Assembly: GCF_058153355.1 (NCBI RefSeq)
Contig: NZ_CM177019.1
Reading direction: 5' to 3' (one strand)
Length of the DNA stretch: 64,000 nucleotides
Of the stretch, positions 55,955 to 57,418 are shown in pieces. The first letter of the stretch is position 1; the number at the start of each line of letters is the position of its first letter. Both the position numbers and the translations under genes were made by a program. Under the pieces are notes generated by a model. It had not been told where the DNA came from. It worked only from the letters and a program-made list of their open reading frames with translations, and did no database searches.

Positions 55955-57418
55955 TTAACCTGTGACTTTTTGTTCTCCTGTTTTTCCTGCTGCAGTACGT
56001 TTCTTTAATAAGGCGTAGGCCGCAAAGGCGACAATAACGCCGACAAACCATGAAACGCGTGATAAAGGCTCCATGAACGGAATAAATTTACCACCGAGAG
56101 ATAAAATAACGGCGACCAAAGTTACTGAGAACGCGGTGAGGTTAAAGCCGTTATCGTAATATTTGAAATCCCCTGCTGCGGTATACAGTTCATCAAGATT
56201 AATTTGTCCGCGCATCACCACAAAATAATGCGCCATCATCACACCAATTACTGGACCCAGCATTCCGCCGATAATATCGAGGAACAGATAAATACTGTCC
56301 TGATTTTCCATTAATTTCCACGGGCAGATCAGCAGGCTAATAATACTGGCAATCAGTACGCCGTTTTTATAGGTCAGTTTCGTCGGTGCAATAGCGGCAA
56401 TCTGATAACCAGCCGGAATAATATTACCGGTGGCGTTAGTGGAGATAGTGGAGATAGTCGTCATCAGAATAACCAGTACCGCAAAGAACGAGGCAAACAG
56501 GCTATCCCAACGCTGAACAATATCCAGCACGTTCCAGGTGTCAGCGCCGTAGTGAATACTGGCTCCGGCAATAATACATACCCCGGCGACCGCAAACAGA
56601 ATATAGGCCACAACTAAACCCAGCGTTTGCCCCAGCGCTTGCTCACGAAACGAGTGGGCGTTTTGCGTAAAGTCGGATGCGCTCACCGCCGGTGCCGCCC
56701 AGACCGCAACTACCGCGTTAATCACCACCAGGAACAGGAAGCCACCGTTTTCTGCTTTCTGAATACCGCTCGGAATGTAGTCAAAGATTGGACCGATCCC
56801 GACCAGCGAAATCGCCCAAATCGCCATACCGCCGAAAACGATATAGATGCACGGGTTAAGAATGGCAGTAAATTTATTTAAAACTTTTCCGCCGCCAAAA
56901 CCAATACCAACGTTAACCAGCCAGAAGAGTAAGAAAGTAATTAATCCCGGTAGAGAAAGGCCTAACAGGGTAAAATCACCACCGAGAGTTAAAAATCCCG
57001 GCCAGATTTTGCCAATCAGGATCAAGCAGGCCAGCGATCCGGCGTAACATTGCAGGCCAAACCACATAATGGCAGCAATCCCGCCTCTTAATAATCCGGG
57101 AAACAGTGCACCACGTACGCCATAAGAAGCACGCAGGATCATGGCAAAAGGCACTCCGTATTTACTGCCCGCAGCACCGTTTAATACCATTACCGCGGCA
57201 ATGAAAAAGGCGCTGAGGATAATTGCCAGCATAATACTAAAGGTAGACAAGCCGAGAATAAAAAAGCCGCCGACCATCACATAATTGGGAACGTTGTGTA
57301 CCGAGCCCATCCATAAGGTAAAATAGTTAAATGTTTTCCAGGTCCGCTGGCTTTGCGTTTTCGGCAATAGATCTTCGCTATAGCCGCGTTGCTGGAATAG
57401 TTTTCTCTGATGTTCCAT
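55955..57418 (-). CDS. ybbW: Allantoin transporter YbbW (NCS1 family), 487 aa here
   Basis: 487-aa ORF MEHQRKLFQQRGYSEDLLPKTQSQRTWKTFNYF; contains an in-frame 9-bp tandem repeat encoding TISTIS. Confidence 0.9.
   Translation of the reverse strand: MEHQRKLFQQRGYSEDLLPKTQSQRTWKTFNYFTLWMGSVHNVPNYVMVGGFFILGLSTFSIMLAIILSAFFIAAVMVLNGAAGSKYGVPFAMILRASYGVRGALFPGLLRGGIAAIMWFGLQCYAGSLACLILIGKIWPGFLTLGGDFTLLGLSLPGLITFLLFWLVNVGIGFGGGKVLNKFTAILNPCIYIVFGGMAIWAISLVGIGPIFDYIPSGIQKAENGGFLFLVVINAVVAVWAAPAVSASDFTQNAHSFREQALGQTLGLVVAYILFAVAGVCIIAGASIHYGADTWNVLDIVQRWDSLFASFFAVLVILMTTISTISTNATGNIIPAGYQIAAIAPTKLTYKNGVLIASIISLLICPWKLMENQDSIYLFLDIIGGMLGPVIGVMMAHYFVVMRGQINLDELYTAAGDFKYYDNGFNLTAFSVTLVAVILSLGGKFIPFMEPLSRVSWFVGVIVAFAAYALLKKRTAAGKTGEQKVTG

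Follow-up and report, generated by a model that had tools for sequence, protein, structure and literature searches.

A derived in-frame 9-bp duplication in the TM8 codons of allW, encoding a predicted allantoin transporter, in a small Escherichia coli-like lineage

The allW (ybbW) gene studied here carries a perfect 9-bp tandem repeat within its reading frame, and this raises the questions of whether the repeat is a genuine length variant of the gene, how it could have arisen and what three additional residues would mean for the predicted allantoin transporter. The analysis covers a 64-kb window, by which we mean the whole stretch of 64,000 nucleotides under study, and the features that bear on these questions are the following.

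52011..61135, minus strand: operon gcl-hyi-glxR-allW-allB-ybbY-glxK, all genes full length and with no internal stops
55955..57418, minus strand: coding sequence of allW (ybbW), NCS1-family allantoin transporter, 487 aa, from the open reading frame and profile matches
55985..55987, minus strand: codon 478, Gly in the window and in SRR31441161, Glu in SRR8656992, GCA_015332025.1 and other E. coli
56390..56500, minus strand: codons of TM8 (residues 307-343 in the window model, 307-340 in the K-12 model), from AlphaFold2
56423..56443, minus strand: codons of the S326-T327-N328-A-T-G-N332 motif, from the Mhp1 alignment, directly C-terminal to the insertion
56438..56458, minus (coding) strand: perfect 9-bp tandem duplication, two copies of ACTATCTCC followed by ACT, from Tandem Repeats Finder (TRF) and direct reading
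56450-56458, minus strand: repeat copy 1
56441-56449, minus strand: repeat copy 2
56438-56440, minus strand: trailing ACT microhomology of the repeat

The original prediction had assigned the open reading frame to ybbW, and the profile searches confirmed this, with 890.2 bits for NF047713, the NCBIfam equivalog named 'allantoin transporter' (cutoff 800), 745 for NF008476 (cutoff 620) and E = 5.6e-137 for Pfam PF02133 (Transp_cyt_pur); the current name of the gene is allW. Its predicted length of 487 aa was likewise correct for the minus-strand frame at 55955-57418. The product is the AllW/YbbW allantoin transporter, with transport activity predicted from these matches, and it belongs to the NCS1 family (TC 2.A.39), in which K-12 AllW is TC 2.A.39.3.8. 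Like K-12 AllW, with which it shares 98% protein identity, it is encoded in the operon slot between glxR and allB and matches the same NCBIfam and Pfam models; it differs by an additional Thr-Ile-Ser in TM8 and by a few substitutions including G478, and the DNA identity of the two genes is 94.5%. The structure of the gcl-hyi-glxR-allW-allB-ybbY-glxK operon has been described, and in K-12 AllW is needed for allantoin transport and depends on AllB for its stability (PMC10163214). The allantoin-regulon region and annotated E. coli loci were collinear, and 21 of 21 neighbouring genes, among them the entire allantoin regulon, were full length with 97-100% amino-acid identity. With these 21 neighbours intact and the allW frame open, the predicted allantoin pathway gives no sign of decay. 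The neighbouring allB has a mechanical open reading frame of 469 aa at 54533-55942 that begins at an upstream TTG, and the annotated orthologues and the gene calls on related contigs use an ATG start that gives 453 aa (from 55894 downwards).

The letters agtggagat-agtggagat-agt, which had been reported at 56438-56458, were found there exactly on the plus strand as 2.3 perfect copies of the 9-bp unit, and TRF returned the repeat at 56437-56458 with period 9, 2.4 copies, 100% matches and 0 indels. On the coding strand ACTATCTCC-ACTATCTCC-ACT occupies gene nucleotides 961-981 (codons 321-327) and encodes the peptide T321-I-S-T-I-S-T327. The 64-kb window has no other perfect period-9 repeat of at least 21 nt, and with an expectation of 0.005 from 200 shuffles the repeat exceeds chance. 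Both primers of a published ybbW qPCR assay for E. coli matched the window allW perfectly and its probe had one mismatch; interference of the duplication with this assay was considered and rejected, the amplicon lying at gene nucleotides 407-609. TRF gave five hits in total across the window, the allW repeat among them. Other repeated stretches in the window include a second short tandem repeat inside allW (56619-56642, codons 261-267), with two copies of a 12-bp unit at 91% match encoding A-LGQT-LG. The purK-ybcF intergenic region (43589-43784) contains two copies of a 100-nt unit (96% match) that is REP-like and palindromic (GCCGGATGCGGCGTGAACGCCTTATCCGG...) and that E. coli 2013C-4282 has as well. 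At ~6826-7795 there are two copies of ~470 nt with ~96% identity, which correspond to hokE toxin loci annotated as duplicated in E. coli 042.

The original prediction gave K-12 YbbW as a protein of 484 aa, and direct alignment to K-12 (DH1) verified this length together with a single copy of the unit. KE55, the closest complete genome for allW, also encodes 484 aa; each of the two genes is without exactly one 9-bp unit, and the protein stretch reads LMTTISTNATGN in K-12 and KE55 versus LMTTISTISTNATGN in the window. The proposed three-codon tandem duplication is therefore borne out by alignment, and it is clean and flanked by a 3-nt ACT microhomology. A 101-nt query with the repeat at its centre was compared with 5,312 complete E. 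coli genomes, and the top matches were all 92/101, consisting of identical flanks and one 9-nt gap. A 41-nt query of the junction only, which seeds only in a two-copy genome, found no match among complete E. coli even at E <= 10, and a local control established that it was not removed by the low-complexity filter. Ordinary E. coli contigs that share the GlxR protein of the window encoded a 484-aa AllW in 10 cases out of 10. The parent, a single-copy AllW protein with E478, is common (911 index blocks, complete genomes included), and no single-copy AllW with G478 was on record in the protein index. The nearest single-copy allW DNA allele found (CP042942.1) was 22 substitutions away from the window and no close single-copy sister strain of the carrier clade was found, so that the duplication cannot be dated against a sister. 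Two copies in K-12 and most strains would have meant the absence of a polymorphism, and it was found instead that K-12 and all the other strains are single-copy. The expectation that the repeat is polymorphic in length failed for common variability (0 of ~5,300 complete E. coli were two-copy) and held in the sense of a rare allele, carried by 5 of 5 indexed contigs of one lineage.

These carriers also speak to the authenticity of the allele. The exact 487-aa protein was recovered from the Logan assembly of SRR31441161, the contig of which is 100% identical to window positions 52955-60418 (7,464 nt), duplication included. The Logan assembly of SRR8656992 contains the junction and a 487-aa AllW and has one SNP in 7,362 nt relative to the window, at base 55986, which gives Glu478 in place of the Gly478 of the window. 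The NCBI assembly GCA_015332025.1 is also two-copy and differs from the window by two SNPs in 18,046 nt, at 55986 and 48501. Position 48501 is part of the allantoin regulon and falls in its divergent fdrA-allD intergenic region, a promoter region. An origin of the extra 9 bp in sequencing or assembly, with their absence from the organism, is effectively refuted, since the identical junction is present in the NCBI assembly and in two Logan assemblies of different runs that lie 0-2 SNPs from the window, and a clean in-frame 9-bp duplication is an atypical mode of error. The original prediction had been open to reads showing a single copy, and the independent read-derived assemblies show two.

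The exact AllB protein of the window was present in five indexed contigs, and two-copy AllW was found in four contigs with E478 (one of them GCA_015332025.1) and one with G478. The five AllB-identical contigs correspond in number to these four and one, so that the duplication is present throughout the lineage as sampled, and the two-copy allele appears to be fixed in this one tight lineage. Gly478 is a second, later nonsynonymous change in allW, located in the C-terminal tail that is of low confidence in the AlphaFold2 model. The change at this codon was the only coding SNP among lineage members over 18 kb, and being common to the window and SRR31441161, Gly478 defines a sub-branch of the carrier lineage. 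The two SNPs in 18 kb between carriers suggest, as a very rough estimate, a divergence within decades to centuries.

The background on which the allele occurs was characterized from the rest of the window. Positions 40000-64000 (24 kb, the pur-all region) were collinear with E. coli 2013C-4282 at 98.0% identity, the two differing in net length by exactly 9 bp, and positions 1-24000 (the ent-fep-cus region) reached a best identity of 95.6% among 5,426 complete E. coli genomes. Among species representatives the identities to the window were 93.2% for E. whittamii, 95.3% for Escherichia sp. E1V33 and 93.1% for E. coli E69, and the window was closer to E. coli than to any of these three. As the identities are low both to complete E. 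coli (95.6-98%) and to other Escherichia, the source is a sparsely sampled, divergent E. coli-like lineage and not a typical E. coli. E. coli 042 has ~10 kb of extra sequence between cusS and nrfB (toxin-domain, WD40-repeat and IS genes) that is missing from the window.

To polarize the two states, orthologues were retrieved from 77 species-representative genomes, including Escherichia, Citrobacter, Klebsiella, Serratia, Listeria, Enterococcus, Collinsella and Paenibacillus, by a codon-degenerate scan for T-I-S-T-N-A-T-G-N-I-I-P, and all were single-copy with L-(M/L/F/S)-(T/S) preceding one TIS. The exact junction 23-mer was found in none of 100,044 species representatives and in none of 241 million metagenome contigs, and the codon-degenerate two-copy pattern was not found in metagenomes either. 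As all other genomes checked have a single copy, the two-copy state is derived, and an ancestral two-copy state was rejected. No second, independent two-copy occurrence was found in complete E. coli, species representatives or metagenomes. Single-copy alleles read ACT-ATC-TCC-ACT, with the 9-bp unit bounded by a 3-nt direct repeat, and units bounded by short direct repeats are a classic substrate of replication slippage. Slippage between the two ACT trinucleotides, 9 bp apart, would have generated the tandem duplication, most likely once, and the two-copy allW would then have been inherited by the small, nearly clonal, divergent E. coli-like lineage. We infer with high confidence one replication-slippage event whose product was fixed in a small clonal lineage.

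Rare length variants of the gene occur elsewhere as well. The allW of E. coli 0-4 (NZ_CP076262.1), here called delta-LGQT, is likewise a rare in-frame variant of the slipped-strand kind at a short tandem repeat; it encodes 480 aa after the loss of one 12-bp unit (residues 262-265) and lies at another site in an unrelated strain. On the sequences compared, there are at least two sites in allW with rare in-frame variants attributable to slippage in different lineages. Among other departures from the full-length gene, IS1 is inserted in allW of E. coli AW1.7, and in O157:H7 genomes the allW alignment ends 67 nt before the 3' end of the gene, which suggests a different or truncated C-terminus. A contingency locus, where a hypervariable repeat would change its copy number frequently and switch transporter function, could point to the unit lost in another strain from the second allW repeat (56619-56642), but is contradicted by the mere two copies of a 9-bp unit that as a multiple of three keeps the frame, by the single copy in all of ~5,300 E. 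coli and 77 species representatives and the two copies in all carriers. Neither intermediate nor higher copy numbers were seen among the ~5,300 E. coli and the carriers. A phase-variable simple-sequence repeat was rejected on similar grounds, there being no frequent copy-number variation and no frame switching.

The effect expected on the protein depends on where the residues are added. The repeat had been placed in a transmembrane region, and the AlphaFold2 model and the alignment to Mhp1 both located it in TM8. The Thr-Ile-Ser insertion falls in the N-terminal half of this helix, immediately before the S-T-N-x-x-x-N motif, and by Mhp1 topology this half would face the periplasm with the insertion about one turn above the central binding site. 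HMMER aligned AllW with Mhp1 at E = 4.5e-23 and ~23% identity, pairing S326, T327, N328 and N332 of the window with S312, T313, N314 and N318 of Mhp1, and W119 and Q123 with W117 and Q121; of the Mhp1 residues, N314 as well as N318 hydrogen-bonds the substrate. In Mhp1, N318 of TM8 holds the hydantoin ring by bidentate hydrogen bonds and the N318A mutant loses both uptake and binding (PMC4195764), and the Na2 sodium ion is coordinated by three other TM8 residues, A309, S312 and T313 (PMC3812048). Mhp1, the hydantoin transporter of Microbacterium (PDB 2JLN, 4D1A, 2X79), and CodB (7QOA) have the NCS1/LeuT fold in common with AllW. Unlike AllW, Mhp1 has 5-aryl hydantoins rather than allantoin as substrate, and its TM8 is of canonical length. 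Counterparts of the Mhp1 ligands W117, Q121 and N318 and of the Na2-site residues S312 and T313 are present in the window AllW by alignment.

The AlphaFold2 model of the window AllW (pLDDT 92.6, pTM 0.92) has a 12-TM LeuT-type fold in which TM8 is one continuous helix, and its top Foldseek matches were Mhp1 (TM-score 0.73-0.81, with 0.77/0.81 at the top) and CodB (0.68-0.83). A K-12 model was built from the same homologues and the two were compared by pLDDT and DSSP. Mean pLDDT over residues 301-310, 311-320 and 321-330 was 85, 79 and 89 in the window model versus 97, 97 and 95 in that of K-12, and the models were otherwise similar. AlphaFold2 is an unreliable predictor of mutational effects.

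The constraint on this segment was gauged from an alignment of K-12 AllW with 108 full-length NCS1 representatives mutually below 50% identity (n=109). The three inserted columns were occupied in 0/109 of these proteins, and the spacing from A309 to the motif serine S326 was 14 residues in 109/109 versus 17 in the window. The window AllW departs in this from an invariant property of the family, the canonical TM8 length of 14 residues, counted from where the gap-free block begins to the serine of S-T-N, and its orthology is unaffected. Variation in length starts in the loop upstream, with a D305-to-S326 spacing of 17-24 across the 109 proteins, and 102 and 104 of the 109 homologues retain N328 and N332, respectively. 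As an indel inside the helix is unprecedented among the 109, the insertion would be expected to perturb function. The earlier suggestion that the repeat may alter transporter function is in this sense plausible from conservation. The duplication regenerates the motif-side sequence: counting back from the Asn, residues -1 to -4 stay the same, -5 turns into Ser, which is the second commonest residue of the family there, and -6 stays hydrophobic. Putative allantoin permeases of very distantly related taxa, among them Enterobacterales, Listeria, Enterococcus, lactobacilli, Paenibacillus, Collinsella and one Chryseobacterium contig, have one and the same 12-residue stretch in TM8, TISTNATGNIIP, and in several Listeria sequences the upstream stretch ASIFAVLVILMT of the enterobacteria is found too. 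This sharing indicates either extreme conservation or horizontal transfer of the putative transporter.

The added Thr-Ile-Ser would amount to almost one helical turn in the outer half of TM8 and would shift the register of upper TM8, with the probable result that allantoin uptake is reduced or abolished; such a shift and loss are probable because the segment length is constant in all relatives examined. Allantoin use is a conditional function, as an anaerobic nitrogen source, and the lineage would for that reason tolerate a loss of uptake. The best explanation, which we favour with moderate confidence, is that of a derived slippage allele of single origin that would reduce or abolish allantoin uptake, and most likely the allele impairs, or at best leaves unchanged, this putative activity.

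That it leaves the activity unchanged is a possibility we rate clearly lower. The periplasmic end of TM8 and the TM7-TM8 loop would then take up the extra residues, the binding site would stay as it is, transport would be normal and the allele would serve as a lineage marker only. Such a near-neutral outcome gains from the regenerated sequence next to the motif and a Ser at -5 that is common in the family, from an upstream TM7-TM8 loop that varies in length across the family and could take up the extra length, and from the unbroken helix that AlphaFold2 retains at a pTM of 0.92. The allele is moreover present in all five indexed contigs of the lineage and in the window with the open reading frame and the regulon intact, and has persisted through some diversification. 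It is weakened by the lack of any in-helix indel among 109 NCS1 proteins, 77 species representatives and ~5,300 E. coli, by the position of the insertion at most one turn from essential binding residues and by the local pLDDT drop of 6-18 points, which is confined to TM8.

We consider it improbable that the change is adaptive, that is, that a longer TM8 reshapes the pocket or the cation coupling and would thereby alter specificity or kinetics under selection. The insertion abuts the specificity-determining TM8 residues of NCS1 transporters, the allele is apparently fixed in the lineage as sampled and the same gene has a second nonsynonymous change (codon 478), all of which would fit such a reading. 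However, the insertion recurs in no other lineage or taxon searched, descent alone can account for the apparent fixation in so tiny and nearly clonal a carrier clade, and E478G lies in the low-confidence C-terminal tail. A shade less probable still is the stronger form, in which the TM8 insertion would remodel the substrate or cation pocket into a new specificity or coupling that selection maintains in the divergent Escherichia lineage. If this pocket remodelling were true, allW would offer a natural example of a LeuT-fold transporter neofunctionalised through the insertion of one helical turn.

As a rare allele of a well-known gene the two-copy allW is ordinary, and its significance is limited. 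Its junction 23-mer, ACTATCTCCACTATCTCCACTAA, is a clean marker for one small, divergent E. coli-like lineage. Under the favoured reading of reduced or abolished uptake, inactivation of AllW would leave the lineage with no allantoin uptake despite an intact regulon, a loss that surveys of gene presence would miss. The allele also constitutes a natural test of how far an NCS1/LeuT-fold transporter may tolerate a one-turn insertion beside its binding site.
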